Assembly: GCA_023444705.1 (NCBI GenBank)
Contig: JAEXMB010000033.1
Coordinates: 581-64,580, forward strand
Source: Pseudomonadota bacterium
GTDB lineage: Bacteria; Pseudomonadota; Alphaproteobacteria; Micavibrionales; UBA2020
DNA: 64,000 bases
Direction: 5' to 3'
Numbering within the stretch: position 1 is the stretch's first letter; every line of letters starts with the position of its first letter. The notes under the pieces were generated by a model. It worked only from the letters and a program-made list of their open reading frames with translations, was not told the origin of the DNA and did not search any database. Shown here in pieces: positions 4,488 to 21,127 of the stretch. The translations under genes were made by a program, and so were the position numbers.

Positions 4488-4504
4488 TTTCATTTCAGAA
4501 AAGG

Positions 4505-4777: not shown

Positions 4778-4798
4778 GATACTCCCCTTCCCTTGCCG

Positions 4799-6019
4799 TT
4801 AGTTGATTTCAGTGACGACTGCGTCGTCGTCGTCATCAGTGATGCCAAGCGCCGTCGCGGCGGCCTTGGTACCCTGCGCATAAAGAAGATAGTAGCGGTG
4901 TTCGATCAATCCAGCCTCGTAAGCATCGCGCGCGGATTTTTCCATCGTCTTGCCGTACTTGGGCACCATCGTCATCAGCTCGAACGGCCAGCGGTCGGCA
5001 GGCAGGTTGAGCATGCGCTCGCGGATTTCCTCGGTGAAAGGCATGTATTCGCGCAAGGCCACGCGTCCGCCGCCGATTCTCGGCACCAGCGTCTGCGTAA
5101 CGATCAGGCGCACGGTTTCCATCAGCGAATAGGCGCGCTCGGAGCGCTCGGACGGCTCGAACGTCGAGACCATGCGTCGGATGGTGGCGGCCACACCCGT
5201 GGTGTGGACGGTGGCGTAAACCGTGTGGCCGGTCTGCCCCGCTTCGATTGCGGCGTTGATGGTTTCGCGGTCGCGCGCCTCGCCCACCATGATGATCTCG
5301 GGCTTGCGGCGCAGGGCGTTGCGCACACCGGCGGCAAAGGTCGGCAAGTGGCGCGGAATTTCCGTCTGCGCGACCAATGATCTGCGCGAGGTGATGGTGT
5401 CGTAGGTGAATTCGATCGGCGCTTCGTACGTCAGCATCTTGCCGCAGCCGTGCGGGCTTTCGATCAGCATGCGGTTGCCAGCGGCCAGCAAGGTCGACTT
5501 ACCCGAACCGGTCGGCCCCGTCACCAGCACAAGCCCCTGACGCGGTTTCCAGTTTTCGATGATCTCGGGCTCGATGTTGAGCTGCTTCATCGTGGGCGGC
5601 GCCTGCGGCAGGGTACGCATGGTGACCTGCACGCCGTCGCGGCCATCGGCCAGAATCGCCGTCATGTTCACGCGAAAGCGCGTGCGCGTGAAACGATCAA
5701 CCATGATCTCGTAAGACAAGTCGATGTCCGCACCGCCGGCAAGGATGGCCAGTGCCTCCGTACCATAGAGGCGGGTGAGGATCGCCGTCATGTCGGCGGC
5801 GTCAAGCGCGCGGTGCGTGCCCGGATAAAGCGTGCCGTGAATTTCACAATAGACGGCGCGGTTGGATTGAAATGTGATGTCCGATGCGCCGCGCTTGACG
5901 CACCACAGCAGGAACGGGTCAATGTGATGCTCGAGAAAACGGTCCGGCTCGTTCGGCCAGGTTTCCTTGAGGTCATCGATACCCTTCTTGAGAAGGCTTA
6001 CCGGTCTGCCGGCTTCCAT
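4799..6019 (-). CDS. dotB: DotB/TraJ-type secretion ATPase (PilT/VirB11 superfamily)
   Basis: Walker A LVTGPTGSGKSTLL. Asp/His boxes IIMVGEARDRETINAAIEAGQTGHTVYATVHT. Sits in dotD-dotC-dotB order and overlaps dotC by 22 nt. Acidic C-tail DDDDDAVVTEIN. Confidence 0.85.
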   Translation of the reverse strand: MEAGRPVSLLKKGIDDLKETWPNEPDRFLEHHIDPFLLWCVKRGASDITFQSNRAVYCEIHGTLYPGTHRALDAADMTAILTRLYGTEALAILAGGADIDLSYEIMVDRFTRTRFRVNMTAILADGRDGVQVTMRTLPQAPPTMKQLNIEPEIIENWKPRQGLVLVTGPTGSGKSTLLAAGNRMLIESPHGCGKMLTYEAPIEFTYDTITSRRSLVAQTEIPRHLPTFAAGVRNALRRKPEIIMVGEARDRETINAAIEAGQTGHTVYATVHTTGVAATIRRMVSTFEPSERSERAYSLMETVRLIVTQTLVPRIGGGRVALREYMPFTEEIRERMLNLPADRWPFELMTMVPKYGKTMEKSARDAYEAGLIEHRYYLLYAQGTKAAATALGITDDDDDAVVTEIN

Positions 6020-7290
6020 TGCTGCGATCCTGTCAGGAATTCAGACGGGCCGGTGATACGCAGCGCGCGATCGCCCACCCGCATGAGGTTTTTGCCGCCG
6101 GTCACCCCGCGGTCTTCATGCATGGCGTAGGGTGCGGAAATCTTGCCCTCTGCCAGCAGGGTCCGGTAACGCACCATACCGTTATAGTCTGACACCAATT
6201 GGTTAAGATTGGTTTCAAAGGCTTCTTCACCCTGATTGTAGCCCGCTGTCCAGCCCTGCTTGACCCAGCTGTTCCATTCCAGCTGTTCCTTGTCATCCTT
6301 GGGCCACAAGACACGCGGCGGCGGCGTGATGTCGGTTTCGTATTCGGGCATCAGATAGGTGCGCCAGTCGCGCGGCGCGGCGACGATCTTCGCCTGCTTG
6401 TTGATGTCGAGGATCTGGTCGGCAACGGCGGCTTCGTTGCCGTCGTTGGTGATGAGGATATTGTCGAGCGATTCGCGCACGATCGGCGGTTCGATCAACA
6501 GGCCCGACGGCGCGCGCACCAAAAGCGCGCGGAAATTGAACACGCCGTCCATGACCTGTTCGTAATCTTCAAGACGTTCGGCCACCTGATACTGGCGCTT
6601 GGCAAGGCCGCCGCGCGCGCCGTACGACAAGGCCGCCTCGCGCTGGGCATCGCGGCGGATGTCGAGGTTGAGCAGTTCTTCCTCCACTTCCGCATCGGTG
6701 ACGTTATAGGTCGTGCCGTGCGTCTTGTGGACGTCTTGCAGGCGGTCAAGCTCGGGCGGGGTCGGCTCGTCCGTCACGGTCTGGCGCGGATCGACCACAG
6801 TCGCGCGCGCAAAGTTGGTGACGTCGCCGTCGCGCTTGGCCTTGTCGGCCAGCTTGTTCGCCTTGTATTGCGGGCTGTCGGGGTTTTTCAGCAGTGCATT
6901 CATCTCGTCGGATGAAATCTCGTCAGGTTGCTGGCCGGGCAGGACCATGCCGGGCGGATAGTAAAAACTCTGCACGCCCTGCGGCGTGACAAAGCCCTGC
7001 GGCACCATGATCTGGCCCTGCCCGTACTGACCTTGCCCGTACTGGCCTTGCATATAGGGCTGTTGCTGGCCGATCTGCTGGCCATAGCCGTATTGCTGTT
7101 GCGTGCCGCCCGTCGTCGTGCCCGATGACGGCGCGCCAAACATCTGCGCGATGGCGCTGGCGTTTGAATTGGGTTGTTGTTGCGTCGTGGTGGTTGTCGT
7201 CTGCGCATGGGCAGCCGTGTGCAGGGCCATCAGGGCGCCCGCCGCGACAATCATGAATGCTGTGCGTTTAACCGCCGGAAGCAGGCGCAT
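5998..7290 (-). CDS. dotC: DotC/TraI-type T4BSS outer-membrane-complex protein with an N-terminal Thr/Gln/Gly/Tyr low-complexity insert
   Basis: Signal peptide MIVAAGALMALHTAAHA. The conserved block EAALSYGARGGLAKRQYQV...FNFRALLVRAPSGLLIEPPIVRESL...AKIVAAPRDWRTYL fits the DotC family as I recall it. Lies between dotD and dotB. Confidence 0.8.
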   Translation of the reverse strand: MRLLPAVKRTAFMIVAAGALMALHTAAHAQTTTTTTQQQPNSNASAIAQMFGAPSSGTTTGGTQQQYGYGQQIGQQQPYMQGQYGQGQYGQGQIMVPQGFVTPQGVQSFYYPPGMVLPGQQPDEISSDEMNALLKNPDSPQYKANKLADKAKRDGDVTNFARATVVDPRQTVTDEPTPPELDRLQDVHKTHGTTYNVTDAEVEEELLNLDIRRDAQREAALSYGARGGLAKRQYQVAERLEDYEQVMDGVFNFRALLVRAPSGLLIEPPIVRESLDNILITNDGNEAAVADQILDINKQAKIVAAPRDWRTYLMPEYETDITPPPRVLWPKDDKEQLEWNSWVKQGWTAGYNQGEEAFETNLNQLVSDYNGMVRYRTLLAEGKISAPYAMHEDRGVTGGKNLMRVGDRALRITGPSEFLTGSQQWKPADR

Positions 7291-7801
7291 AGTTCAGCTC
7301 GACAACTTTCTGGTCGACATCGACCGAAATATCCGCGCGCGTGCCAGCCTGCAGGCCAACGTCGCGCAGCACCTCAACCACCGATTTCTGCTTGGCGATC
7401 ACATGCACAACCACGGGCGCGGGCGGCACATCGCCGTTGACGCGGAAGCGATAGCCCGCGCGGTCGGCCAGTTTTTGCGTCAGCGGTTCGATCGGGCCGA
7501 CCCACTCGACACTGACGCTGCGGCGCAGTTCCTGCGGTGCGGAGGGCACGGACTGGATGGCGACAGCGGGCGTGCGCGCCTGTTCGACCGACGCCAGCGT
7601 TTGCAGCGCAGCCGACGCGCGGTCGGCGGCGGATGCCAGACGCAGACTGACCGGATCGGGTTCGGCGACCATTTGCTGGTCGACCTTCTGGTTGAAATTC
7701 AGCGGCGCGCAGGCAGCCAGCGTGACGGCGAGCGCGGCGCACGCGACCAGCGCGGCAACGCGGCGGTATGGCAAGAGTGTGACAGCGGTATGTGACGGCA
7801 T
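7268..7801 (-). CDS. dotD: DotD/TraH-type T4BSS lipoprotein
   Basis: Lipobox-like LTLAAC after a hydrophobic stretch. The C-terminal domain VSVEWVGPIEPLTQKLADRAGYRFRVNGDVPPAPVVVHV...VLRDVGLQAGTRADISVDVDQKVVELNY resembles DotD. I chose the internal ATG at 7801 over the ORF-track start at 7906. Confidence 0.8.
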   Translation of the reverse strand: MPSHTAVTLLPYRRVAALVACAALAVTLAACAPLNFNQKVDQQMVAEPDPVSLRLASAADRASAALQTLASVEQARTPAVAIQSVPSAPQELRRSVSVEWVGPIEPLTQKLADRAGYRFRVNGDVPPAPVVVHVIAKQKSVVEVLRDVGLQAGTRADISVDVDQKVVELNYAPASGG

Positions 7802-8008
7802 GACGCCTGCGCTTCCCCTAATTTTTACCCTTGTGCAGGCGCGACGCCGTGCCAAAGGCATTTGGCGTGGCTGGCACCGGTCCCCCGACCGGACATCCCC
7901 ACGCATGAACCTATGTTTTTTAATTTTATGGGTTTACGCCGCCGCAAGCAAGCCTTTCGCGGACATGATGGCGGCAAAAGTCACAGTGTAATCTGGTAAA
8001 TGGAAACT

Positions 8009-8497
8009 TCAGCGCGTTTGCGCGCCCTGCGTCGTGCGGCTGGCGACGGCGGCACTGGCGCGCGCGTGCGCCGCGACAAGGTCGCTTGGCTGGCGCACAA
8101 GGCGGTAGTTCTGCATCGCGCGCAAAACTTTCTCGCGGTACTTGTGGCCGAATTTCGGCGTGGCGGAGTGATACCACGCAATCCCCTGATAAAGACTACC
8201 GGTATCGTTCATCTTTTTACGCAGGATCCACGCACCGACGCCGATGTTGATGCAGGCGTCGTCGCGCACCATCTGCTTGGCGCGGCTTTCCGACACGTTC
8301 CAGTGACGCGCCAGTTCGGGCATCCAGATGGTGTTGATCTGCATGGGGCCAAGGTCGTGCGTGCCGTTGGTGTTGGGCACCGCCTGACCGACGCGCCCGC
8401 CTTCGACATGCAGGATACCGAGAATAACGGGGGCAGGCACAGAATAGGTCTGTGCCGCAGCGAAGATACACATGGCAAGGGCCTGCGCGGTAATCAT
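8009..8497 (-). CDS. lytic transglycosylase (SLT domain; VirB1/TrbN-like specialised muramidase)
   Basis: Motifs LHVEGG (catalytic Glu context), GPMQIN and AWYHS. Signal-like N-terminus. ATGA-coupled to the upstream Dsb-like gene. Confidence 0.8.
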   Translation of the reverse strand: MITAQALAMCIFAAAQTYSVPAPVILGILHVEGGRVGQAVPNTNGTHDLGPMQINTIWMPELARHWNVSESRAKQMVRDDACINIGVGAWILRKKMNDTGSLYQGIAWYHSATPKFGHKYREKVLRAMQNYRLVRQPSDLVAAHARASAAVASRTTQGAQTR

Positions 8498-9429: not shown

Positions 9430-9667
9430 TGGCTGAAAAAGTTCCCCCGGAAAACAGCGCCCTGCACGGGCGCGGTGACACCTCACCATAGCGAAGGCGC
9501 GCATAAGAATCCAAGCTTGATTGCAAGATTGCCGCCCTGCACCGCGCCGCGCGCCTACCCTACATATCTTAACACAGCTTGGATAACACTTTGGATAAAT
9601 TCATTAACACGCGCATAAGTACACGCGGGGACATGCATTTTTATTCATGATAACAACACGATAAAGA

Positions 9668-10207
9668 TCACGGGGCCGGCGGCGGCGATTTTTTGTCGCC
9701 AGGTGCCGGTCCGTCGCTGGCGGGCTTTTCGATGCGCTCGGGCGCGCTGACCATATTGAATCGGGGCGCGATCAAGGTGCGGGTTTCGCTCAAGCCTTCC
9801 TCCTGCTGGCGCAGACGGTCGCGCGCGCTGGCGATATCGGGCATTTCCTCCATCACGCGCAGGCGGCATTTGCGCAGCATCTCGATATAAGCTTCGTGGC
9901 GGTAGGGAATAAGCTGGTCGTCGATCTTGTCGTCAAACAACGTGCGCCCCTTGGTATTGGCGACGAAAAGATCGTCTACATGGGGCAAAACATGCGTCAG
10001 CCAGTCGTATTTCTGGTCCTGAATGGCGCGCTTGATGCCTGCGTGCAATAACGGCAGGCCGTCGCCGTTGCGCGCATGGACATCAGCACCCTTGGCGATG
10101 GTCATGTCAAAAAGCTTTTTGTCGCCGTTCTGCACGGCGGCAAACATCTCGCCGGTCATCAGGGCGATTTGCTTTTTCAGGCCTTCTTCGGTGACGGGGC
10201 GGTCCAT
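9668..10207 (-). CDS. small ankyrin-repeat protein (candidate effector)
   Basis: DKKLFDMTIAKGADVHARNGDGLPLLHAGIKRA fits the ANK consensus. Basic/Pro C-tail GDKKSPPPAP. Confidence 0.75.
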   Translation of the reverse strand: MDRPVTEEGLKKQIALMTGEMFAAVQNGDKKLFDMTIAKGADVHARNGDGLPLLHAGIKRAIQDQKYDWLTHVLPHVDDLFVANTKGRTLFDDKIDDQLIPYRHEAYIEMLRKCRLRVMEEMPDIASARDRLRQQEEGLSETRTLIAPRFNMVSAPERIEKPASDGPAPGDKKSPPPAP

Positions 10208-10484
10208 AGGGCGTTATCGGGATTCTATATGCTGTTAATATGCCATAATACATAACAGGTCAGCGTGCAGGAGTCGACCTTCTTTTCGCGCCTAGATGAT
10301 GCGCCGCAACAGCGCGGCGCAATAAAATATCATTGAAAAATCAGGAAAATTTAACCTGCAGAGGGCTCTTTTCCCCTTGCCAGCCGATGTAGCGGCGTAT
10401 AAGTTTCTTTCCGTATCTAAACCCGAGTCTTTTTATTTATGTCGCAGGCGCGGCGATCAGCACGCGCAGGCCGGAGTAACGACC

Positions 10485-11117
10485 ATGAAGGTATCGCAGA
10501 TTTTCAAAGCCAGTGCTGCAGCCGTTGCCATCGGCGGTGCCGGGTATGGCGGCTATGTCGCCGCCGATCATGCGCACCAGTATCTGGCGAAAACCCCGAT
10601 GCCCGCGCTGAGCGCAAGCGCGCGTGACCGCGCCAAGGACTACAGCCTGCGCTTTACCACCGTGCTGGCGCAGCAACAACTGCTCGACAACACCACGGAC
10701 GAGGAAGAAGCCGGCAACACCCTGTTTGAAGCCAAGCGCGAACTGGCGACCGATGCCGTGCTGGACAGCACGCTGAGCGAAGCCGACCTGTCGCGTCTGG
10801 CGCGCGACTTCAACGCCATCAGCGAAGACGACGCCGTGCGCTTTCGCTCCTACGCCTACGACCCGCAAACCATCGCGCGCCGCAACGAATGCCTGCGCGT
10901 CACCCCCGCCACCAACGACAAGCACGGAGCCGACCGCTTTGCCTACGCGCAGCGTGTTGAAACCTGCATGATCGAAATGACCGACCAGACTCCGGCGACC
11001 AATACCATTGCCGCGCGCATAGGCGGCATGATGGGCGGCGGCATGGCTTTCACCTTCCTGCTGGGCTTTTCCGCGCGCCGCCGCATTCACGGCGCCAAGG
11101 CACCCAAGGCCGGTTAA
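10485..11117 (+). CDS. hypothetical protein with N- and C-terminal TM segments
   Basis: GGAG lies 8 nt upstream of the ATG at 10485. Sequence MKVSQIFKASAAAVAIGGAGYGGYV...IGGMMGGGMAFTFLLGF, tail GAKAPKAG. Confidence 0.6.
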   Translation: MKVSQIFKASAAAVAIGGAGYGGYVAADHAHQYLAKTPMPALSASARDRAKDYSLRFTTVLAQQQLLDNTTDEEEAGNTLFEAKRELATDAVLDSTLSEADLSRLARDFNAISEDDAVRFRSYAYDPQTIARRNECLRVTPATNDKHGADRFAYAQRVETCMIEMTDQTPATNTIAARIGGMMGGGMAFTFLLGFSARRRIHGAKAPKAG

Positions 11118-11176
11118 GCGCGCCTTCATTGCGTGTTTGACATCATCACACTCTTCGCAAAGGATCCCGCGCCAAG

Positions 11177-11698
11177 ATGCTGAAATCATCTGTCTCGCTG
11201 CTGCCTGTTCTGTTCGCCGCCTTTTCGGGCGCGCTGGTTACCGTGCAGGCGGGCTATAACGCCCAGCTGGGCAAGATGCTGGGCCATCCGCTGTGGGCGA
11301 CGCTGGCGTCCTTTGTCATCGGGCTGGTCGGCATCGTCGCCATCATGGGCGCGCTGCGCGTACCCGCCCCTGTGCTGGGCGGCCTGACGGGCGCGCCGTG
11401 GTATCTGTGGCTGGGCGGCTTTTTCGGCGCCATCTACGTCACCGCCGCGATTATGTACGCGCCGCAGCTGGGCGCTGCGGTCTTTATGGCCGCCGTGGTC
11501 GTCGGGCAAATGCTGGCGTCGCTGTTGCTGGACCATTACGGGCTTGCAGGATTCAGTGAACGTCCTGTATCACTGATGCGCCTGCTTGGCGCGGCGTTGC
11601 TGGTTGTAGGCTTGCTGTTGCTGCAGGCGCCCGCCAAAAAGGCATCGGGTGCCGCAGCGCCCGTTGTGCCCGCCCAGCAAGAGAACCCATTGCCGTGA
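11177..11698 (+). CDS. DMT-superfamily membrane protein, YdcZ/DUF606-like
   Basis: 173 aa with about 5 TM. GALVTVQAGYNAQLGKMLGHPLWATLASFVIG and GGFFGAIYVTAAIMYAPQLGAA are typical of the family. Confidence 0.75.
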   Translation: MLKSSVSLLPVLFAAFSGALVTVQAGYNAQLGKMLGHPLWATLASFVIGLVGIVAIMGALRVPAPVLGGLTGAPWYLWLGGFFGAIYVTAAIMYAPQLGAAVFMAAVVVGQMLASLLLDHYGLAGFSERPVSLMRLLGAALLVVGLLLLQAPAKKASGAAAPVVPAQQENPLP

Positions 11699-12258
11699 AC
11701 GAACCCCAAACTCCCCGTCAAAGCGCACCCGCAGGACTGATCCAGATCGAGATGGTCGAAACGCTGTCGCCCGCCGATCTCAACGATCTCTGCGACGCAA
11801 CCGATGCTGCCGTAGAAAGCGGCGGCGGCTTTGGCTGGATCACGCCGCCCGCGCGCGAAGTGATGGAGCGTTACTGGAAGGGTGTGATGGTCGTGCCCGA
11901 ACGCCACCTGATCCTCGCACGCCGCGACGAAGTAGTCTGCGGTGCCGTGCAGCTGGTCGAACCCAGCCGCCATAACGAAGCGCAATCGTTTTGCGCCAAT
12001 ATCCTTGCCTGCTTCACAGCGCCGTGGGCGCGCGGACAGGGTGCGGGGCGCAAACTGGTCGAAACGGCAGAGAAGCTTGCGCTTGAAATGGGCTACAAGG
12101 TCGTGCAGGTCGACGTGCGCGAAACACAGCAGCACGCGATTACGCTGTTTGAAAAAACCGGCTATGTGCGCTGGGGCGTGAACCCGGCCTATGCTTTCGT
12201 GCAGGGCCAGATGATCCGCGGCTTTTATTACACCAAGACGCTGGCAGCCGTCGGCTGA
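11695..12258 (+). CDS. GNAT-family N-acetyltransferase
   Basis: Acetyl-CoA motif ARGQGAGRKLVETAEKLALEMGY and a C-terminal FEKTGYVRWG. ATGA-type overlap with the upstream gene. Confidence 0.85.
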   Translation: MNEPQTPRQSAPAGLIQIEMVETLSPADLNDLCDATDAAVESGGGFGWITPPAREVMERYWKGVMVVPERHLILARRDEVVCGAVQLVEPSRHNEAQSFCANILACFTAPWARGQGAGRKLVETAEKLALEMGYKVVQVDVRETQQHAITLFEKTGYVRWGVNPAYAFVQGQMIRGFYYTKTLAAVG

Positions 12259-12277
12259 TTATTTTCTTTGCTGTTTA

Positions 12278-12907
12278 TCAGGGCTTGGGCGGCGCTTTGG
12301 GCGCGGCAGTCTTTGGCGTGGCCTGATCGTCATTGGCGCGCTTGCGGCCAAAAATGTTGCTGAGGCTGATCGACGCAGCTTTGCGTTCAGGCTGTGGCGC
12401 GGATGTAGGCGCAGGCGCTGCCGGTGCAGCGTTGCCAGCCTTTGCCGCACGTACGGCATCGCGGCGCGCACGCCATGCGCTGGCGATTTCTTCCATCTTG
12501 TAAGCGGCGTAGCGCTTGCCGATTTCTTCCTTGAGGACGGGCAGCGTTTCTCCCTGCGCGCGTGCCCATATTTTTTTACCGCGCCATGCGGCAAAACCGC
12601 ACCCTGCGGCCAGCACGCCAATAAGGCCGGCACCGCTGGCCAGCGTCAGTGCGCCGCCAACAGCAAGCGCAATCCCGCCGCCTGCGGACAGCAGCACACC
12701 GCCAATCGCCGCCGCTGCCGCAACACCCGCAGCGCGCACATCGCGTTTGAAGGGGGCCACGGTTTTATACATGTCCTTGAGCGTTGCGATGATCCAGGTA
12801 TCAGGCGGCAGCAACGCTGAATCCGACGCGATGAAGGGCATGACCTTGCGTGCAAGGCGGCGCGAGGGATCAAGCTTGGCTGGCGTTTGCGTCGGCTGGG
12901 TCATCAC
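12278..12907 (-). CDS. Gly/Ala-rich bilobed-hydrophobic membrane protein (Inc-like architecture), hypothetical
   Basis: One roughly 50-aa hydrophobic block, AAGVAAAAAIGGVLLSAGGGIALAVGGALTLASGAGLIGVLAAGCGFAAW, followed by an A/P/K-rich tail ending APKAPPKP. Confidence 0.6.
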   Translation of the reverse strand: MMTQPTQTPAKLDPSRRLARKVMPFIASDSALLPPDTWIIATLKDMYKTVAPFKRDVRAAGVAAAAAIGGVLLSAGGGIALAVGGALTLASGAGLIGVLAAGCGFAAWRGKKIWARAQGETLPVLKEEIGKRYAAYKMEEIASAWRARRDAVRAAKAGNAAPAAPAPTSAPQPERKAASISLSNIFGRKRANDDQATPKTAAPKAPPKP

Positions 12908-12915
12908 ATCAATCC

Positions 12916-13878
12916 TTATTTCTTTTTATTGTCGGGCGCGCACGCTTTGGGCGCGGCGCGATGATCGCTCGGGTTATCGTTGGCGCTGTCGCTGTCGGGT
13001 TTTGCGCCCTGCGCGAAATCCGCGCGCGCGCTAAGCTGGCTGACAGGCGCTTTGCCCGTTTGCGCGGGCGGTGCCATCTCGCGGTTGGCAACCATCGCGG
13101 CGGCGGCTTTTTCCGCACGCGACACACGGTGCCAGCGGATCAGCGATTTGCTGCCGAAGTAAAGCCCGGCACATCCGCTGACGACACCCGCAACGGCCCA
13201 CAGCGCAACGAAAGACACGGCACTGCCGATCGCAACGACAGGCAGAACGGCCAGTTGCGCCGCCAGCACCCACGCACTCATGCCGGTGGTCAGCGCCGCA
13301 CCGCTCAGTGCCGTGGTGCCAAGCATCCATTTTTTCTGTTCGCGGATGAAGCGTTCGGTCACTTGCCAGATGCGTGTCTGCCCGACGGCCTTGACGGCCT
13401 TAAGCTCTGCAATCTTGTTGACGGTGCGATAGAACGGGCGGTCCGATGCCGCGGGTACGGGCGGCGGCGGTACGGACGGATCGGCCGTCTCGCCGTTCTT
13501 CATTGAATCATAAGCGGCGCGCATGCGGCCCAGAATAAAACGTGTGCCGGCAATGATGCCCACGGTTGCAACGCCCGCCACCACGGCAACGCCGGTGATC
13601 ATCGTCGCCGCCAGCATGAAAGGCAGCGTCATCGCATAGGCGCAGGCACCGGCCACCGTCAGCGCCGTCATGGCGGCACCCGAGCGCACCGCCATCATGT
13701 GCAGCCAGAAGGTATGGTCGCGGCTCAGCTCGTTCATGAAGGTATAGATCGTATTGAAGGCGCGCTTGGGCGAACGCAGCGAGGCCAGCAGCGATTTCAG
13801 CCAGCGGCGTTGCACGGCAGAATCGCCCGCAGCGGCTGGGGTCTGGTTTTCCGTTTGTGTTTCAGGCGTTTGCGTCAT
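12916..13878 (-). CDS. Gly/Ala-rich membrane protein with two bilobed hydrophobic blocks, hypothetical
   Basis: Blocks AMTALTVAGACAYAMTLPFMLAATMITGVAVVAGVATVGIIAG and LSGAALTTGMSAWVLAAQLAVLPVVAIGSAVSFVALWAVAGVVSGCAGLYFG. Basic tail APDNKKK. Confidence 0.6.
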   Translation of the reverse strand: MTQTPETQTENQTPAAAGDSAVQRRWLKSLLASLRSPKRAFNTIYTFMNELSRDHTFWLHMMAVRSGAAMTALTVAGACAYAMTLPFMLAATMITGVAVVAGVATVGIIAGTRFILGRMRAAYDSMKNGETADPSVPPPPVPAASDRPFYRTVNKIAELKAVKAVGQTRIWQVTERFIREQKKWMLGTTALSGAALTTGMSAWVLAAQLAVLPVVAIGSAVSFVALWAVAGVVSGCAGLYFGSKSLIRWHRVSRAEKAAAAMVANREMAPPAQTGKAPVSQLSARADFAQGAKPDSDSANDNPSDHRAAPKACAPDNKKK

Positions 13879-14134
13879 TGAAAGGACATCGCTTGAATCT
13901 GGTGGGCGTTAAGACACAACTGGCGGACGTTTTTACTGTCGCAGAATATCAAAACAAATCAATGGTGTGTTGCGAAAAGGCGTTATCCGCCGGGGGTGTT
14001 AACATATTGTTCATGATATTTGCATAAAGTACATAGTGTGGAAAGCAAAAAACATGGGGCTACATAAGGTTTTTTGCCGGACCACACGGGAATATCCCAA
14101 GGGGCAAGCCCCTTTATAAGAGGAGAAGGCAACG

Positions 14135-14401
14135 ATGGAAAACGTGGTGGGTTTAAAATATACGGGCACGGGGTTCTTTGACCTCAGCGCCAATAACGGC
14201 CTCGGCGAATACAAAGGCTACTTTGTGGTGATGCGCCCCGGCCAGGAAAACGAGGCACAGGACAAGTTGCGCGCCTTTAGCTCGGCAGGTGCCAAAAACG
14301 CCATGCGCGTGCGCGACGGCGTCATCGCCCTGACGCGCAAACAGGCGGAAGAGCGTATCGCAGCCATCCGCCGCAAGCTCAGCGAAATCGAAGGGAACTG
14401 A
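14135..14401 (+). CDS. hypothetical small protein
   Basis: Strong RBS (AAGAGGAGAAGG) about 6 nt upstream. 88 aa. Confidence 0.55.
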   Translation: MENVVGLKYTGTGFFDLSANNGLGEYKGYFVVMRPGQENEAQDKLRAFSSAGAKNAMRVRDGVIALTRKQAEERIAAIRRKLSEIEGN

Positions 14402-14403
14402 CC

Positions 14404-14577
14404 ATGTCCAAGCAAACTGTTATCGACACCCTGCAAACATCCATCGACGGCTTGCAAGCCTTTGCACTGGATGCCGCCAACCCCGCAATCGTGGGCCCGG
14501 CGCGTGACGCGGCGCTTGCCAAGCAGGCAGGCGTTGACCACGTGGCCAACCGCGCGGTACACGTCAAGCTCGGCTAA
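14404..14577 (+). CDS. hypothetical small protein (57 aa, below the ORF-track cutoff)
   Basis: My translation: MSKQTVIDTLQTSIDGLQAFALDAANPAIVGPARDAALAKQAGVDHVANRAVHVKLG. It starts 2 nt after the preceding stop and is followed by a strong terminator. Confidence 0.45.
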   Translation: MSKQTVIDTLQTSIDGLQAFALDAANPAIVGPARDAALAKQAGVDHVANRAVHVKLG

Positions 14578-14596
14578 AACAGCCTCTATCAACAAC

Positions 14597-14640
14597 AAAA
14601 AGTCCCTGCAGGTCCATCGCTGCAGGGACTTTTTGTTGTT
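14597..14640 (+). terminator. rho-independent terminator
   Basis: AGTCCCTGCAG (14601-14611), loop GTCCATCG, CTGCAGGGACT (14620-14630), then TTTTGTTGTT. Confidence 0.85.
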
Positions 14641-14695
14641 GATGCGCCTTGCGCGCGGCGGCTAGAATCATCATGCATTTCAAGGGAGCGCTGCC

Positions 14696-15055
14696 ATGAC
14701 CTATGACACCAGCAATATCTTTGCCCGCATCCTGCGCGGTGAAATTCCGTGCAAGAAAATCCACGAAAGCGCGCATAGCCTTGCGTTTCACGACATCGCG
14801 CCACAAGCCCCCGTGCATGTGCTGGTCATTCCTAAAGGTGCCTATAGCGACATGAGCGATTTTGCCGCCAATGCCAGCGCCGAAGAAAAGGCGGATTACT
14901 TTGCTGCCATCGGCGCAGTGGCCGAGATGACCGGCCTGAAAGATGAGGGCTATCGCCTCATCAGCAATTGCGGCAGCAACGGCGGGCAGGAAGTGCCCCA
15001 CCTGCACGTCCATCTGGTGGGCGGCAAGAAACTCGGCAAGATGCTCGCGGGCTGA
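14696..15055 (+). CDS. HIT-family (histidine triad, Hint-like) nucleotide hydrolase
   Basis: IFARILRGEIPCKKIHE N-terminus and the histidine triad QEVPHLHVHLVGG. Confidence 0.9.
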   Translation: MTYDTSNIFARILRGEIPCKKIHESAHSLAFHDIAPQAPVHVLVIPKGAYSDMSDFAANASAEEKADYFAAIGAVAEMTGLKDEGYRLISNCGSNGGQEVPHLHVHLVGGKKLGKMLAG

Positions 15056-15331
15056 GCGCGACTCGCCCGCCGCCCCCCGCTTTCCCATACATGAATGCCG
15101 CATTGCGGCAAAAGGCGCTTTGGACGAAAAAACCCATTTTTTGTAATATTGTTTTAATATTTCAATCTGAACGGCCTTAAAATTGCCAAAGTATTAATTT
15201 TTCGGTAATTTTATCTTGTCGAGAATCCTGATCGCCTGTACCTTACGTAAACGATCTGACATCCAAATAACAAAAAAGGCTCCGGCCGTTTCTGGCGGTT
15301 GAGAGGCTTGTTTTCAGGAGGCCACTTTCCC

Positions 15332-17986
15332 ATGACCGATCACACTGGTTACACCGGCTACCGCTTTATGGTTGATGCCAAGACGTCGCGCCAATACGCC
15401 CTGCGCTATGTCGACGGCGCCCCCCAGCCCCCGGTGACCATCCACGCAACAGACGTGGCGGAAAGCAAACTCAAGCCCCATGAAACTGTTTTCGCCTTTG
15501 ACGACGAAATCCAGACCGAAAAGCGCGCCGACGGCGTCTATCTGTCGACCGTTGTCTGGCAGATGAAAGCCAACGCCAACGGCGATTTCGGCCAGGGCGC
15601 CGAAGGCAAGCGTTGCGCTGTTGAATACAAAGTCATCTTCAAGCCCGACGCCGAGCGCGAAGGTGCAGTGAACATCGAATACGTGCTGACCGATGAATCG
15701 CGCGCGGATCTTGATGAAAAAGGCTTCTCCGAAGACCTGCCGGAAATGTTCGTGGAAGAACTCGAACTCGACAACCCGGGCATCGACCGCGCACGCGGCA
15801 TCGTCAAGCCGGAAATCCTCTCCACCATCGCCTTCCCGCCGCATCACAACGGCAGCGCCACGATCGCGCGTTATAACGTCGAGCAAAACCCGCAGCCCGC
15901 GCCCAAGCCGGCCACTGTGAGCCAGCCCGCCGCCAATACCAATACCGCGCCGCGCCCGACCCCCGCGTTCCCCCGTCCGACGTCGACCACGTCGCCGCGC
16001 ACGCGCACTGTCGAGCGTCCGCGCGTTCCCGACAGCGCGATCGAGGCGATCATCAAGCAGTTCTGCGACGACCTCAGCGAAAAAGCCGCCAGCGGCAAGC
16101 TTGACCCCGTCGTTGGCCGCGATGGCGAAACCGATCAGGCGCTGAAAGTCATGAGCCGCCGTAAGCAGGCCAGCATGTGCTTCACCGGCGATGCCGGCGT
16201 GGGTAAAACCGCGATGTTCTCGGCCGTTGCGCAACGCCTGCACGACGATCGCGATAACCTGCCCGAAAGCCTGAAGGACGCGCGCGTTCTGGTGCTTGAC
16301 TTGCAGGCGATGAACGCGGGCGCGAAATTCCGCGGCCAGTTCGAAGAAAAGCTGAAACCGCTGATCGACGGCCTGAAAGAGCGCGAAGGCTACCTCAAAG
16401 GCCGCAAGGTTATCCTGGCGATCGACGAGATCCACAGCCAGCTGACCGCCGGTAAAGCCGAAGGCGGCTCTGACGCGGGCAACATGATGAAGCCCTTCCT
16501 GACCTCGCAGGGCATCTCCGTCATGGGCACCACCACGGCCGAAGAATACCGCAAGTACATCGAGAAAGACGGCGCGTTGTCCAGCCGCTTTGAACAACTC
16601 GTTGTCGGCGAGCCGAGCGCGAAAGACACCAAGCTCATCCTCAACAGACTGTGGCCGCTCTACCGCGATCACCACGGCCTGACGCAGGACCTGTCGGACG
16701 AAGACCTTGATTACATCGTCACCATGTCCAACCGCTACGCGCCCAACGAATCCCAGCCCCGCAAAGGCGAGAAAGTTCTCTCGACCGCAGCGGCTTCGGC
16801 TGAATTCCGCGGCTCGAGCAAGATCGAAAAAGAAGACATCATCTCCGCCGTTGCGCAGATGTCGAAACTGTCGGTCGACTTCCTCAACCAGAACGACCTC
16901 GAGCGTTTTGTGCAGATGGAAAAAGAGCTGCCGCAGAAAGTTCTCGGCCAGCCCGGCATCCAGAAAGTCGTCGACGGCCTCGTCGGTGCGCGCTCGGGCC
17001 TGAACGATCCCAACCAGCCCTGGGGCTGCTTCGTTCTGCAAGGTCCGACCGGTACCGGTAAAACCGAACTCTGCAAAGAGCTGGCACGTTACCTGTTCGG
17101 CACCGAGGAAGCGATGATCCACCTCAACATGGGTGAATACGCGCAAGAACATTCGGTCGCCCGCCTGATCGGCGCGCCTCCGGGCTATGTCGGCTTTGAC
17201 AGTGCCGAACCCGCCCTGACCGAAAAAGTCCGCCAGCGCCCCTATTCGATCGTCCTGTTCGACGAAATCGAAAAAGCGCACCCGAAAGTCTTTGACGTCC
17301 TGCTGCCCGTCCTCAACGACGGCAAGATGGAAGACAACCAGGGTAAAACCGTTCTGTTCAACAACTGCATCGTCGTCATGACCACCAACCTGGGTGCAAA
17401 AGACGCGATGGCGCTGGTGAAAAACGGCGGCACTGCAGGCATGGGCTTTGGCACCGAAACCAAGGCAAAAACGCCCGAAGAAATGCAGGACGATCTTGCC
17501 AAGGTCTACAAAAAGGCCCGGGGCGACTTCTTCCGCCCCGAAATGATCAACCGTATCGAGGAGCTGGGCGGTTTCGTGACCTTCCTGCCCCTGAGCCAGG
17601 TTGTCGTGTCCAAGCTGATCGACCGTGAAATCACCAAGGTCAGCGCGCGCCTGAGCAAAAACGACGGTGCAGGCCTGGCCGGTGTCAGCCTCGAGGTCGG
17701 CGAAGAAGTCCGCGCGAAACTGGCGAAAGACGGCTACGTGCCCGAAATGGGCGCGCGTCCGATGCGCAAAGTCATCCGCGAGCAGATCGCCAACCCGCTG
17801 GGCAAATGGCTGATGGTCAACAAGGAAGAGCTGATGACCTTCGTTGCCAAGAACGGCCCCGCGAAACTGGTCATCAACAAAGTCGGTGCCGATTTCGCAC
17901 CGAAGATCGAAAAGGCCGTCAGCAACACCAACGAAGTTGTTGCCAAGCCGGTCCGCAAAAAGGCAGCTGGCCCCAAACCGGGCTAA
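15332..17986 (+). CDS. atypical two-ring Clp/Hsp100 AAA+ ATPase (ClpA/ClpV-like, no long M-domain) with a non-canonical N-terminal domain
   Basis: D1 has Walker A FTGDAGVGKTAM and Walker B ILAIDEIH. D2 has VLQGPTGTGKTEL, IVLFDEIEKAHPKVFDVLLPVLNDG and sensor-2 GARPMRKVI. The first roughly 260 aa (MTDHTGYTGYRFMVDAKTSRQYALRYVDG... then a Pro/Thr-rich linker) do not resemble a Clp_N repeat. Start taken at ATG 15332, downstream of CAGGAG. Confidence 0.85.
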   Translation: MTDHTGYTGYRFMVDAKTSRQYALRYVDGAPQPPVTIHATDVAESKLKPHETVFAFDDEIQTEKRADGVYLSTVVWQMKANANGDFGQGAEGKRCAVEYKVIFKPDAEREGAVNIEYVLTDESRADLDEKGFSEDLPEMFVEELELDNPGIDRARGIVKPEILSTIAFPPHHNGSATIARYNVEQNPQPAPKPATVSQPAANTNTAPRPTPAFPRPTSTTSPRTRTVERPRVPDSAIEAIIKQFCDDLSEKAASGKLDPVVGRDGETDQALKVMSRRKQASMCFTGDAGVGKTAMFSAVAQRLHDDRDNLPESLKDARVLVLDLQAMNAGAKFRGQFEEKLKPLIDGLKEREGYLKGRKVILAIDEIHSQLTAGKAEGGSDAGNMMKPFLTSQGISVMGTTTAEEYRKYIEKDGALSSRFEQLVVGEPSAKDTKLILNRLWPLYRDHHGLTQDLSDEDLDYIVTMSNRYAPNESQPRKGEKVLSTAAASAEFRGSSKIEKEDIISAVAQMSKLSVDFLNQNDLERFVQMEKELPQKVLGQPGIQKVVDGLVGARSGLNDPNQPWGCFVLQGPTGTGKTELCKELARYLFGTEEAMIHLNMGEYAQEHSVARLIGAPPGYVGFDSAEPALTEKVRQRPYSIVLFDEIEKAHPKVFDVLLPVLNDGKMEDNQGKTVLFNNCIVVMTTNLGAKDAMALVKNGGTAGMGFGTETKAKTPEEMQDDLAKVYKKARGDFFRPEMINRIEELGGFVTFLPLSQVVVSKLIDREITKVSARLSKNDGAGLAGVSLEVGEEVRAKLAKDGYVPEMGARPMRKVIREQIANPLGKWLMVNKEELMTFVAKNGPAKLVINKVGADFAPKIEKAVSNTNEVVAKPVRKKAAGPKPG

Positions 17987-18003
17987 TCGCCAAGACCTTC
18001 TCC

Positions 18004-18041
18004 AAAAAATCCCCGGAAAGTCATTTCCGGGGATTTTTTGT
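18004..18041 (+). terminator. rho-independent terminator after the Clp-like gene
   Basis: ATCCCCGGAAA (18009-18019), loop GTCA, TTTCCGGGGAT (18024-18034), then TTTTTTG. Confidence 0.85.
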
Positions 18042-18152
18042 TTCATCACAAAGAGATAGCGCAAAAGCAGGCGGGCAAGAAAAGCTTGACTCTTTGTATT
18101 ATGGCTAATAAAGTCAGGGCATTCATTTCCGCCGTCTTTAGGAGAGTCGCTT

Positions 18153-18974
18153 ATGTCCGTCAGCTATAATGGCAAAAAACCCGGTGCCCTCTGGTACATG
18201 CGCAAGCGCACCGGCGCGTTAATTGCGGCCTGCAAAGACAAAAGCACACGCCATATCGCGCGCGCCATGCGCCGCGACGGCATGCTCAGCACCGCTGGCT
18301 TTGCCACCGCAGGCATCTTCCTCAAGGTTTCAGCCACTGCCATCACCGGCTTTATCTTCAGCTATGGCCTGCCCGTCGCGGCTGGTGCAGGCGTGCTGAT
18401 GGGGGCAAAAAGCTACATGTCCTATCGTAAATCCGCCAAGAGCGGCAAAAAATCCACGCACGTGCGTGACGGGCTGATTGCCGTCGGCGCAATTGGTGTC
18501 GGCGTATTCCTGCTCAGCTCCGGTGCCGCTGCCGTGGTGGCAATGGCCGTTGGCGTCGGCGCACCGGTCGCCGCTGGGGCAGGCATTTTGTTCGCGGGCA
18601 AGGGTTGGCTTGCCAGCCGCAAGCTTGGCAAATCAGCACCTGCGTATAATTACATGCGCAAGGCCGAGCAAAACTGGCTCGACAAAAAAGAACGCGCACC
18701 TCTTCACAAGCGCATCGGCGCAACGCTGGCGCGCATCGCAACCAGCCCTTTGCGTCTGTTCACCCGCAAAGGCGCGCAACAAGACACCGCACAGCAAGAT
18801 GCGCCCGCGCTGGAACAGCAAGGCCGCGCGCCTGCGCTTGAAGCCACCGCCGGTGATGCTTTTGCGAAAAGCGCGCCCGCGGGCGAGCAAGACCCGCAAC
18901 GCGCCGCTGCCGCGGCAGAACGCGCCGCCGCACGCCAGCGCCGCCAGCGCGATGGCGGTACGCGCTTTAACTGA
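18153..18974 (+). CDS. Gly/Ala-rich membrane protein with two bilobed hydrophobic blocks, hypothetical
   Basis: Blocks TAGFATAGIFLKVSATAITGFIFSYGLPVAAGAGVLMGA and GLIAVGAIGVGVFLLSSGAAAVVAMAVGVGAPVAAGAGILFAG, followed by an A/Q/R-rich tail. Same architecture as 12278..13878. Confidence 0.6.
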   Translation: MSVSYNGKKPGALWYMRKRTGALIAACKDKSTRHIARAMRRDGMLSTAGFATAGIFLKVSATAITGFIFSYGLPVAAGAGVLMGAKSYMSYRKSAKSGKKSTHVRDGLIAVGAIGVGVFLLSSGAAAVVAMAVGVGAPVAAGAGILFAGKGWLASRKLGKSAPAYNYMRKAEQNWLDKKERAPLHKRIGATLARIATSPLRLFTRKGAQQDTAQQDAPALEQQGRAPALEATAGDAFAKSAPAGEQDPQRAAAAAERAAARQRRQRDGGTRFN

Positions 18975-18992
18975 TCGCCGGATAGCGCGCAT

Positions 18993-19030
18993 AAAAAAGA
19001 GCGGCCTTGATAGGGCCGCTCTTTTTTATT
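18993..19030. terminator. bidirectional rho-independent terminator between convergent genes
   Basis: A-run, AGAGCGGCC (18998-19006), loop TTGATAG, GGCCGCTCT (19014-19022), T-run. Confidence 0.75.
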
Positions 19031-19060
19031 CAATCGCAGTGCAGCAGTGCAGCGGCGCGA

Positions 19061-19708
19061 TCATCCGCGCCCGACGATACTGTGCAATGCCGCGACATCG
19101 CGCGCGGGCAGTTCCTCCAGCCGCGCGGGATTAAAGGCCTGCACCACGATTTTGTCGGCGGATTTTTGCGCAAGACGGCGCAACAGCACACGTCCGTCGG
19201 TGAATTCGACCACGCAGTCGCTGCCCGTCATGACCGGTTTGGCCGGATGCACATAGACCAGCTCGCCGCGGAAATAGCGCGGCTGCATATCTTCGCTGTC
19301 GACATAGAGGGCATAGGCATCGCGCAGCGCAAACTGGTGCGGATGGCGCACGGCCCAATCAATCACCTCAGCCGTGCGGCGGTCGCGGTAAACAGGTACG
19401 GGAGGCGGCATGGCATGCGCGGCAGCGTCGCGGCCGTCAATCTCTGTCCTGCGCACGTCGGAAAAGCCGCGCGCGGGCGTGCGGGCATTTTGCTGATACT
19501 CGGCAGAGGTCGCGCGGCCAAGGTCAAGCGTGACACCAAGATAGTCTTCAATCACCGGCAGCTCGTCCGCCATGATGTTGCGGCGGCCATAAAGCATGCG
19601 GTTCACAGCGGCGGGATTGACCCCCATACGCTCGGCAAGGCCGCGTTGCGTCAGGCCAGGCGTGCTTTCAAGGTAGTGACGGATTTTTTCGTGCAAACGC
19701 ATATTCAT
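19061..19708 (-). CDS. CI/LexA-like repressor (XRE HTH plus S24-like domain with apparently degenerate catalytic dyad)
   Basis: HTH GLTQRGLAERMGVNPAAVNRMLYGRRNIMADEL. C-terminal domain YALYVDSEDMQPRYFRGELVYVHP...GRVLLRRL. Start is ambiguous among TTG 19750 and ATGs 19732, 19720, 19708 and 19702. Confidence 0.75.
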   Translation of the reverse strand: MNMRLHEKIRHYLESTPGLTQRGLAERMGVNPAAVNRMLYGRRNIMADELPVIEDYLGVTLDLGRATSAEYQQNARTPARGFSDVRRTEIDGRDAAAHAMPPPVPVYRDRRTAEVIDWAVRHPHQFALRDAYALYVDSEDMQPRYFRGELVYVHPAKPVMTGSDCVVEFTDGRVLLRRLAQKSADKIVVQAFNPARLEELPARDVAALHSIVGRG

Positions 19709-19832
19709 GGCACCGAGCATAAGCGATTTCATAAAATGATAAAAGTGCAATTTTTAAAAGAAATAATAATTCTTTTATATCATTAGTTTAATAACATAAA
19801 TTGCGAAAATCAAATTATATATAGACTTTTAA

Positions 19833-19847
19833 TTGCGTATATCGCAA
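19833..19847. promoter_or_regulatory. candidate operator palindrome in the AT-rich divergent repressor/early-gene intergenic region
   Basis: TTGCG-TATAT-CGCAA is a perfect inverted repeat. Another TTGCG half-site is at 19801-19805. The surrounding 19751-19860 is very AT-rich. Confidence 0.35.
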
Positions 19848-19957
19848 TATTGTCAGGATCGCGATTCGACAGTTCCTGCGCACTCCGGCCATCCCTGATG
19901 GCGCGGCGTACAGGCCGACGAAACGCTCGCGCATAACAAGACAAGGAACGCCGACAG

Positions 19958-20455
19958 ATGACACGCAGAAAGTGGTTTAGAGTTTATCACGGCCTTGCCA
20001 GCGATATGACGCTGGCCGTCGCAGCCGAGCAGGCGGCCATCACCCGCGCGGACATGATCGCGCTGTGGCTCTGCCTGCTCGACCATGCCAGCCGCGCCAC
20101 TCCTGCGGGTAGCATCGCGCAATTTGAAAAAGAAGAAACCGCCTTGTTGCTCGGCCTGCCGCTGGCACGCGTTGAAGCCGCCCTTGCCGCCTTGCACGCG
20201 CGCAAAAAAATCGATACCCACCAGCGCATCACCGGCTGGGACAAGTACCAGCCAAGTTCAACCGCGCGCGTGCGTGCCCTGCGCGCGCGACGCCAGACAA
20301 CGCCAAAGGCACCGCAGGCCGCAACCCCTCCTGCCCCACCACGCACGCCGGTGCGCGATGCGGATCATGACAGCCCCGCCGCGATTGCCGCACGGCGCGC
20401 ACGTCTGCAGCACAACAACGCGCTCATCATCGGCCAGCCTGCACGCAACGCCTGA
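19958..20455 (+). CDS. phage early-region hypothetical protein
   Basis: AAGGAA RBS. Divergent from the repressor. 165 aa with a basic, Pro-rich C-half. Confidence 0.6.
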   Translation: MTRRKWFRVYHGLASDMTLAVAAEQAAITRADMIALWLCLLDHASRATPAGSIAQFEKEETALLLGLPLARVEAALAALHARKKIDTHQRITGWDKYQPSSTARVRALRARRQTTPKAPQAATPPAPPRTPVRDADHDSPAAIAARRARLQHNNALIIGQPARNA

Positions 20456-20493
20456 ATTTCCGCTACGTCACGTGTTTTAACGGATGTCATCTT

Positions 20494-21090
20494 ATGTGCC
20501 AGACAACGTCTCTTCCGCCCCGCCCTCACGCTAAAAAGAAATCAACCCCGCGCAAGCCCGTGGCAGCACCGCTTGATCCGTGGCATGACTGGCAACCGCA
20601 ATGGCATGGCAAGAAAACAGGCGAGACACCCCATAGCCTTCAGGAAAGACACGCGCCCACCGTCGCCGTTACCATGCGTATCAGTGCAGAGCGTGCAGAT
20701 TACGTCTGCCAGCGGCGCATGCTGGATGCGCGCCTCTGGGACAGCCTGCCGCGCGAGGCACAGGATGCCGCCACCGACATCGCCGCATCCTACGAGGCCC
20801 TGACCAGAGGCATGGGGGCAGCCACGTCGAACTGGGCGCGCGTTCCCGGCGCGCGCAACCCGGGCGCCGTATCAAATGGCTATGGCCGCCTGAGCGGCAC
20901 TTACATGGATTGGGCCCGCGCCTGCCACGGCGCGGGGATCAGTCATTCAATGATCATCGATGTGCTGTGCCTTGGTATCAGTTGCGCCGCTCTTGACCGC
21001 GACCGCCGTGTGCGCAAAGGCACGTCGCGCCAGAACCTGCACGACGGGTTGATGCTTTATGCACGTCAGCGCGGCTGGGTGCGCAACTGA
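20494..21090 (+). CDS. phage early-region hypothetical protein
   Basis: 198-aa ORF on the same strand as its neighbours. No motif recognised. Confidence 0.5.
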   Translation: MCQTTSLPPRPHAKKKSTPRKPVAAPLDPWHDWQPQWHGKKTGETPHSLQERHAPTVAVTMRISAERADYVCQRRMLDARLWDSLPREAQDAATDIAASYEALTRGMGAATSNWARVPGARNPGAVSNGYGRLSGTYMDWARACHGAGISHSMIIDVLCLGISCAALDRDRRVRKGTSRQNLHDGLMLYARQRGWVRN

Positions 21091-21127
21091 AAATTGAGGC
21101 TTGGATTGACCACTGCGCGGCGCTAAC

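Follow-up and report, generated by a model that had tools for sequence, protein, structure and literature searches.

A putative lineage-specific class of double-ring Hsp100 ATPase with a new N-terminal domain, encoded beside dot genes in Micavibrionales

The window analysed here, a whole stretch of 64,000 nucleotides from contig JAEXMB010000033.1 of a bacterium of the alphaproteobacterial order Micavibrionales, encodes an 884-residue Hsp100-type ATPase, P0001, divergent from a dotB-dotC-dotD operon of a Dot/Icm-type type IVB secretion system (T4BSS); the genome to which it belongs comprises 2.1 Mb in 107 contigs and is 85% complete. The coordinates of all features are collected in Table 1. A preliminary description of the window, made from the letters alone, had presented the ATPase gene as monocistronic, lying between AT-rich DNA and a strong terminator, and this agrees with its own ribosome-binding site, a promoter-like site in the upstream region and an intrinsic terminator with a perfect 10-bp stem (TCCCCGGAAA/TTTCCGGGGA, loop GTCA), 18 bases past the stop codon. 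The consensus terminator scan missed this hairpin, which direct reading showed. The alignment gives the same start residue of the ATPase in its homologues. Scanning of the window identified dot/icm-type, HIT, GNAT and membrane-protein genes as neighbours of the ATPase gene, and no type VI secretion genes were seen in the scanned parts (about 1100-21100).

Both AAA modules, which had been described as intact, were recovered with Pfam (AAA, residues 282-401; AAA_lid_9, 430-516; AAA_2, 563-744; ClpB_D2-small, 754-826). An alignment of 86 family members revealed that Walker A and B, sensor-1, the arginine finger, sensor-2 and both pore loops are kept; in almost every member the D1 pore loop is AKFRG or AKYRG and that of D2 is GYVG or GFVG. 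With catalytic motifs and pore loops thus preserved throughout the family, the new Hsp100 is predicted to be an active threading motor. The junction from the D1 small domain to the D2 P-loop is as short as the preliminary description had stated, comprising 141 amino acids as compared to 144 in ClpA, 261 in ClpB, 240-276 in ClpV, 201 in ClpK and 192 in ClpL. In the full-length AlphaFold model of P0001 (mean predicted local distance difference test score, pLDDT, of 83) the D1 small domain is plain helical and no long M-domain helices are present, again in line with that description; disorder is predicted for a Gly-rich D2 loop (residues 701-708), the C-terminal tail (864-884) and the Pro-rich linker (191-223), whose presence had likewise been noted and which is variable within the family. 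P0001 has a ClpA-like two-ring architecture without M-domain, in which Clp_N is swapped for a new domain on a disordered, Pro-rich linker.

This N-terminal domain had been called unrecognised, and the searches left it so: residues 1-230 gave no Pfam match at E<=10 and no Clp_N (PF02861), a profile search of PDB sequences with the N-domain gave no match, and Foldseek against PDB and BFVD returned nothing at E<=0.001 (best PDB E 0.36, TM 0.23). The AlphaFold model of the domain, based on a 49-sequence alignment, is mostly beta (pLDDT 93.4, predicted template modelling score 0.86), and the modelled fold appears to be one not seen before. Conserved motifs are RF[LM]xDAxxxRQYA, ETxFAFDDE and FPPHHxGxAxxAR. 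In an exhaustive hidden Markov model search of 1.84 billion representative proteins we found 65 carriers of the domain, which are either of ATPase length (~850-917 residues) or short (~220-310 residues); in the short proteins the domain is followed by a conserved ~90-residue module (DAQTL...FNFE.RRVTE...LGG.P) or by shorter ends, and tandem N-domains also occur. As short carriers without ATPase exist, the N-domain is a portable module, a property in keeping with a role in recognition or as an adaptor. The unrecognised domain noted initially is thus real and conserved. No plasmid carries it.

We surveyed 201 genomes of the order, among them those of families f1 (41 genomes), f8 (nine) and six others (150). 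The N-domain was detected in 36 of the 41 f1 genomes, in 4/9 f8 genomes (weak matches) and in none of the 150 genomes of the other six families. Genomes of genus g3 contain two to three extra N-domain copies without ATPase, fused to the ~90-residue module (here DAQTLVEKK.LGDG.TLK.VFNFESRRVTE...LGG.PRP) and a basic end; one g3 protein has two tandem N-domains, and at one of these loci a neighbouring gene encodes the C-terminal module without N-domain. In the f8 members of the ATPase clade only the endpoints of the N-domain motifs (RYFVDA..QY, AVDDE, QHPTGADAARR) are left, within ~110 residues, and a Gly/Asp-rich linker follows this region, which looks like a reduced N-domain.

Table 1. Coordinates of the ATPase gene, its parts and signals, and of other genes referred to in the text. 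Positions without prefix are those of the window; prefixed positions refer to the contig or locus named.
Feature	Position	Strand	Remarks
Promoter-like site TTAATA-18-TAAAAT	15154..15183	+	Consensus scan, pattern match only; AT-rich region upstream of ATPase gene
Ribosome-binding site AGGAGG	15316..15321	+	Read from sequence; 10 nt before ATG
Coding sequence, 884-residue Hsp100-type ATPase (P0001)	15332..17986	+	ATG at 15332; stop codon included
Novel beta-rich N-terminal domain, residues 1-186	15332..15889	+	Conserved in 86 family members
Pro-rich linker, variable, disordered, residues 187-233	15890..16030	+	Low conservation, many gaps; pLDDT <50 at 191-223
D1 AAA+ module and small domain, residues 234-520	16031..16891	+	Walker A GDAGVGKT, Walker B ILAIDEIH, pore loop AKFRG
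D2 AAA+ module and ClpB_D2-small, residues 521-850	16892..17881	+	Walker A GPTGTGKT, Walker B VLFDEIEKAH, pore loop GYVG, sensor-2 GARPMR
Gly-rich flexible loop with MGF tip, residues 696-712	17417..17467	+	Alignment with annotated ClpA, ClpB, ClpV, ClpK, ClpL; pLDDT <50 at 701-708
C-terminal extension, residues 851-884	17882..17983	+	Ala-rich stretch, N-x-N motif (SNTN), Lys/Arg/Pro tail; predicted disordered
Intrinsic terminator of ATPase gene	18004..18043	+	A-run, perfect 10-bp stem, T-run; read from sequence
dotB-dotC-dotD, T4BSS operon	4799..7906	-	Divergent from ATPase gene
dotB	4799-6019	-	Pfam T2SSE
dotC/TraI-type gene	5998-7290	-	Pfam T4SS_TraI
dotD	7268-7906	-	Pfam DotD
Two membrane-protein genes	12278-12907 and 12916-13878	-	ANDD/ANDN and basic tails; between dot genes and ATPase
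541-residue open reading frame	54659-56284	+	Near-variant of tail
Second ClpP-family protease, 317 residues	C75:12161-13114 (L059:1198-2151)	-	Catalytic Ser/His/Asp motifs present
Canonical clpP	C75:11341-11880
Patatin-like phospholipase gene	C71:3019-4527	+	PF01734
FadB-type enzyme gene	C8:19517-22093
tmRNA gene (alpha-type)	C92:18463-18837		Rfam RF01849 alpha_tmRNA, 241 bits
sspB	C92:18965-19372
Extra N-domain gene, g3	L009:2576-3490	-
Extra N-domain gene, g3	L010:2678-3535	+
Extra N-domain gene, g3	L011:2502-3395	-
Extra N-domain gene, g3	L012:1821-3290	-
C-terminal module without N-domain	L010:22-888		Neighbour gene
f8 ATPase gene with reduced N-domain (G026)	L014:2947-5643	+
f8 ATPase gene with reduced N-domain (G051)	L029:4195-6888	+
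Second ClpA gene (f6 genome G110)	L090:799-3174	-
Second ClpA gene (G148)	L091:694-3147	-

A search of 5.8 billion protein clusters yielded about 86 full-length relatives with 45-92% identity to P0001, all without Clp_N, the named ones being 'uncultured Micavibrio sp.' and metagenome-assembled genomes of Alphaproteobacteria. The list of homologues shows a sharp gap in score: the last full-length member reaches 772 bits, after which the values drop to about 560 and, for ClpB, to about 460. All curated NCBIfam equivalog models scored far below their cut-offs with P0001, namely TIGR03346 for ClpB (534.5 bits, cut-off 1232, alignment in two pieces), TIGR02639 for ClpA (487.5 bits, cut-off 993), TIGR03345 for ClpV (447.9 bits, cut-off 885) and NF033606 and NF033607 for ClpK and ClpG (382 and 387 bits, cut-off 1900), and among PDB chains ClpB reached 428 bits, Staphylococcus aureus ClpC about 403 and ClpE 350. 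In a maximum-likelihood tree with ClpA of Escherichia coli and Legionella, ClpB of E. coli and Rhodococcus, three TssH proteins, ClpK and ClpL as references, the family and the proteins encoded next to dotD in f8 form one clade on a long branch, outside ClpA, ClpB, ClpV, ClpK and ClpL (support of 100 in the Shimodaira-Hasegawa-like approximate likelihood ratio test, SH-aLRT). The ClpA clade, which comprises the E. coli and Legionella proteins, ClpA of the genome itself and the f6 copies, and the ClpV clade both have a support of 100 and exclude the new family; ClpL groups with ClpA and ClpK falls elsewhere, neither of them with the new family. The placement among the Clp classes, which the preliminary description had proposed as a check, points to a separate, lineage-specific class of double-ring Hsp100/Clp proteins within a known superfamily, set apart here in a tree without ClpC and ClpE.

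The genome encodes a canonical ClpB with M-domain (contig C2, an open frame of 869 residues) that falls in the ClpB clade, and a canonical ClpA, split across the ends of contigs C37 and C85, that falls in the ClpA clade. As the genome holds its own canonical ClpA and ClpB, P0001 is not the sole housekeeping orthologue; it is a third Hsp100 paralogue, neither housekeeping ClpA nor ClpB. This upholds the initial view of a specialised Hsp100, and its N-domain is no variant of Clp_N. The searchable literature yielded no account of such an ATPase.

When we searched with an f8 protein, a member of the ATPase clade was found in 9/9 f8 genomes. A search of 41 f6 genomes for the new ATPase gave ordinary ClpA proteins (38-42% identity) as best matches, and the dotD flanks of f3, f5, f6 and f7 contained no Clp gene. 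Comparison of coordinates showed that in all 23 genomes with both genes on the same contig (20 from f1 and three from f8) the ATPase gene is divergent from dotD at a distance of 1.9-8.6 kb. In f8 and in genus g4 of f1 a spacer of 200-320 bp separates the start of the ATPase gene from that of the first gene of an (unknown)-SLT-dotD operon; elsewhere a variable set of ankyrin, GNAT, HIT and membrane-protein genes has filled the space between the ATPase and the dot genes. The head-to-head linkage of the ATPase gene with the (unknown gene)-SLT-dotD-dotC-dotB operon is ancestral and persistent, not universal. A correlation of ATPase and T4BSS by presence and absence was considered as well and is uninformative, because DotD occurs throughout the order (195 of 201 genomes).

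P0001 ends in a C-terminal extension that is absent from the aligned ClpA, ClpB, ClpV, ClpK and ClpL references. In nearly all family members this tail consists of an Ala-rich stretch, followed by [ASTV]-N-D-[ND] and 10-25 Lys/Arg/Pro-rich residues; in P0001 and its genus the motif is SN[TSN]N, and N865 is nearly invariant in the family. The Rfam alpha_tmRNA model identified one transfer-messenger RNA (tmRNA) in the genome, where ARAGORN had found none, and sspB lies about 130 bp downstream of its gene. As the tmRNA tag reads ANDNAPATAKVALAA, the tails copy the head of the SsrA tag: they open with the same A-N-D-N/D residues, end basic instead of with ALAA, and have the motif 12-25 residues from the C-terminus, like its placement in a tagged protein. 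The head of the SsrA tag is the SspB-binding part in E. coli and Caulobacter, and basic C-termini reportedly constitute a class of ClpX signals (MuA-type, C-motif 2).

The tail motif has 12 matches in the genome, as compared to 1.2 expected from internal windows. Besides the ATPase it is carried by the two membrane proteins encoded upstream of it in the window, which end ...SANDNPSDHRAAPKACAPDNKKK and ...RKRANDDQATPKTAAPKAPPKP, by a patatin phospholipase, a 404-residue protein of unknown function, a FadB-type 3-hydroxyacyl-CoA dehydrogenase/enoyl-CoA hydratase and a ClpP-family paralogue. In the patatin the ANDD motif occurs twice and the end is basic (...KKAPWWQRKRGS); the protein resembles an effector, or a toxic enzyme kept under tight control. 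The FadB-type enzyme ends ...GKPLRN in f3, f5 and f6; in every f1 orthologue examined it has ~60 extra residues ending [AV]NDN...KVNWP plus a basic stretch, and in f8 it has a related N-x-N extension. Also in the window, a 541-residue open reading frame ends ...ANDTAPKPAPETIVSPIKKIIKRQPPTN.

Tails also occur in f6, several genomes of which contain two tandem ClpA genes. In genome G110 the second ClpA has a normal Clp_N-type start and an ANDN plus basic tail (...VANDNSPEAAKPERQRRRSRTPAPK), its GYVG and KYRG pore-loop motifs not being recognisable, and one more clear tail was found among 42 sampled motif sites; the second ClpA of G148 has kept GYVG and an MGF loop and has a basic tail that lacks NDN. 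A common origin of the new family with the second ClpA of f6 was considered and the joint clade was rejected by the approximately unbiased test (p-AU 3e-53). Two genome-wide counts were set aside. The number of 12-mers coding for A-N-D-[ND] (75 in G110 versus 12 in the reversed control, 38 versus 14 in the f8 genome G026) was not used as the reversed control ignores codon usage, which the excess may simply reflect, and most sampled sites are internal to open reading frames. A count of 'basic + Pro' C-termini (104 versus 28) was discarded because in this GC-rich genome the longest-open-reading-frame set takes wrong-strand frames, among them one over the Clp gene itself.

The position next to the dot genes suggests a secretion-linked unfoldase. 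The explanation we favour, tentatively and with slightly less than even confidence, is that of a separate, lineage-specific Hsp100 unfoldase that would serve the sphere of the T4BSS and whose tail would bring it under common control with other proteins. The hexamer would thread clients picked by the N-domain, directly or via partner proteins, and these clients would belong to the sphere of the secretion system; the motor might unfold or strip effectors prior to export, or remodel or recycle parts of the machine, resembling ClpV in type VI secretion. The 'ANDN + basic' tail would place the ATPase in a small set of tagged proteins together with the second ClpP, the patatin and the T4BSS-adjacent membrane proteins, most plausibly giving them a common control by SspB/ClpXP-type turnover or by common targeting. 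In the most economical version the tail would mediate SspB-assisted ClpXP turnover, the main alternative being an address for the T4BSS. The two aspects could also be joined, although we regard it as rather unlikely that the SsrA-mimicking tail is a shared address label, carried by the new ATPase, the second ClpP, the second ClpA of f6, the patatin and the T4BSS-adjacent membrane proteins, and that the new Hsp100 couples the proteins so labelled to Dot/Icm or to a private ClpP complex. That P0001 acts on secretion substrates had been raised in the preliminary description; the conserved head-to-head linkage with dotD-dotC-dotB lends this indirect support, the function itself being one that we infer.

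Several observations weigh against an unfoldase devoted to the T4BSS and regulated through its tail. The ATPase occurs only in f1 and f8 and DotD order-wide, so the secretion system does not need the ATPase. At least one family member, P0073, lies in a housekeeping neighbourhood, in several genomes the ATPase gene and dotD are found on different contigs, and the linkage to dotD may be inherited synteny rather than functional coupling. ClpC and ClpE, which are not in the tree, enter the class assignment by PDB sequence scores only, in which they are no closer than ClpB. The idea of the N-domain as specific reader of the tail is weakened: tails are found in f6, which is without N-domain, so the N-domain is not the sole tail reader, and in the full-length AlphaFold model the tail is disordered with no sign of docking on the N-domain.

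Alternatively, P0001 may drive a second, dedicated Clp protease as its ATPase, with the hexamer docking on ClpP by its Gly-rich loop and degrading clients chosen by the N-domain, which we consider possible, if on balance doubtful; the protease could be a mixed complex of ClpP and its paralogue. The ClpA-like architecture is consistent with this, as is the hydrophobic-tipped loop, which lies between D2 sensor-1 and the arginine finger, in the same segment as the IGL/IGF loop of ClpA, is ~20 residues longer than the latter and is absent from the ClpB, ClpV, ClpK and ClpL references. P0001 itself reads MGF here, so that the tripeptide pointed out in the preliminary description is indeed present at the position of the docking loop. 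However, known ClpP partners show hardly any variation in the docking tripeptide, and only 19 of the 86 members have a strict [LIVM]-G-[FLM], the others reading LAL, MEL, SFD, ATF or GID, wherefore docking of the new ATPase on ClpP is possible and not inferable from MGF. The second ClpP, with ~50 extra N-terminal and ~100 extra C-terminal residues (ending ...SASNDDKKPAVRSSRKAQGPSA), is encoded immediately upstream of the canonical clpP, in tandem and ahead of clpP-clpX. Intact copies were found in 34/41 f1 genomes and in 0/160 elsewhere in the order, the ANDN plus basic tail is kept in 103 of 120 homologues, and 31 of the 41 f1 genomes contain both the ATPase and the second ClpP. This co-occurrence is, however, confounded by kinship, the two genes are unlinked in the genome, and f8 has the ATPase in all nine genomes but the ClpP paralogue in none.

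The remaining explanations take the tail or the dot linkage differently. If dot proximity were a historical accident, P0001 could be a general stress chaperone or a stand-alone disaggregase like ClpG, ClpK and ClpL, whose atypical N-domains can bind aggregates directly; the monocistronic gene with its own promoter-like site and terminator would fit this, as would the fact that the T4BSS of most families in the order exists with no such ATPase. We consider it quite unlikely, since P0001 does not cluster with ClpK or ClpL, has no small heat-shock genes as neighbours and lacks the M-domain, the head-to-head position has survived in two families although the genes in between have turned over heavily, and the N-domain also occurs without any ATPase. 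For the disaggregase considered in the preliminary description we found no specific support; an M-domain for Hsp70 coupling is absent. The least probable of the explanations weighed here is that the ATPase is itself cargo, with the tail acting as translocation signal for the Dot/Icm coupling complex and the ATPase, the second ClpP, the patatin and the membrane proteins forming a digestive toolkit injected into prey or host cells, where the N-domain would act on a target-cell protein. Positively charged C-termini are type IV signals in Alphaproteobacteria such as Agrobacterium and Bartonella, the tail carriers include the effector-like patatin, T4BSS-adjacent membrane proteins and proteins of unknown function, the N-domain family shows an effector-like expansion of paralogues with modular C-terminal parts and basic ends, and the ATPase gene adjoins the dot genes. 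Yet a housekeeping FadB-type enzyme has the tail in all f1 orthologues examined, which one would hardly expect of an export signal; the likeness to the head of the SsrA tag would have arisen by chance, no AAA+ unfoldase is known to be injected, and the ankyrin genes beside the locus were not among the flagged tail carriers.

It is the choice made by its N-domain that defines an Hsp100 motor, and the new N-domain fold would add a new principle of selection to this heavily studied family. Dot/Icm substrates must be unfolded to pass, and we know of no dedicated unfoldase for type IV secretion; an Hsp100 kept beside dotDCB across two bacterial families is a concrete candidate in this question. In Legionella, loss of ClpP impairs effector translocation (PMC4969725). 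That the ATPase has its tail in common with the second ClpP and with effector-like proteins hints at a so far unrecognised code for targeting or turnover in Alphaproteobacteria that are predatory or host-associated. If the tail were indeed an address label, P0001 would be the first AAA+ unfoldase dedicated to type IV secretion, with a substrate code of its own.

Among the known systems ClpB/Hsp104 gives the best overall scores with P0001 and shares its pore-loop and catalytic motifs, but P0001 has neither the coiled-coil M-domain nor Clp_N, and the match is split around the missing M-domain. ClpC and ClpE, which are ClpP partners using a [VLM]-G-F loop, score nearly as high as ClpB; in contrast to P0001, ClpC has Clp_N and a short M-domain and ClpE a zinc-ribbon N-domain, and the junction of P0001 is too short for either. 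The tail resembles the SsrA/SspB/ClpXP system in that its head matches the tag of the same genome, its position is that in a tagged protein and SspB is encoded, whereas it differs in being genome-encoded rather than added by trans-translation, and in its Lys/Arg/Pro-rich end. As in the two-ClpP systems of Mycobacterium, Listeria and Chlamydia (ClpP1P2), the genes of the canonical and of an intact second ClpP form a tandem, but here the paralogue has N- and C-terminal extensions with the ANDN plus basic tail and is confined to one family of the order.

ClpA is similar to P0001 in having two AAA+ rings, no M-domain, a junction of nearly the same length and a flexible loop in the IGL segment, and the TIGR02639 model aligns in one piece over residues 233-827 of P0001; ClpA also has an intrinsic C-terminal degradation tag. 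P0001 differs from it by the absence of the Clp_N double repeat, and thus of a ClpS site, by the longer loop with its unconserved tripeptide and by the SsrA-like tail. ClpV/TssH keeps a Clp_N-type domain and a middle-domain insertion and serves the contractile type VI secretion system, whereas P0001 is encoded beside a Dot/Icm T4BSS. Nevertheless, ClpV, whose specialised N-domain picks proteins of the machine or its substrates and which works without ClpP, is likewise an accessory Hsp100 encoded with a secretion system and provides the best functional analogy to P0001.

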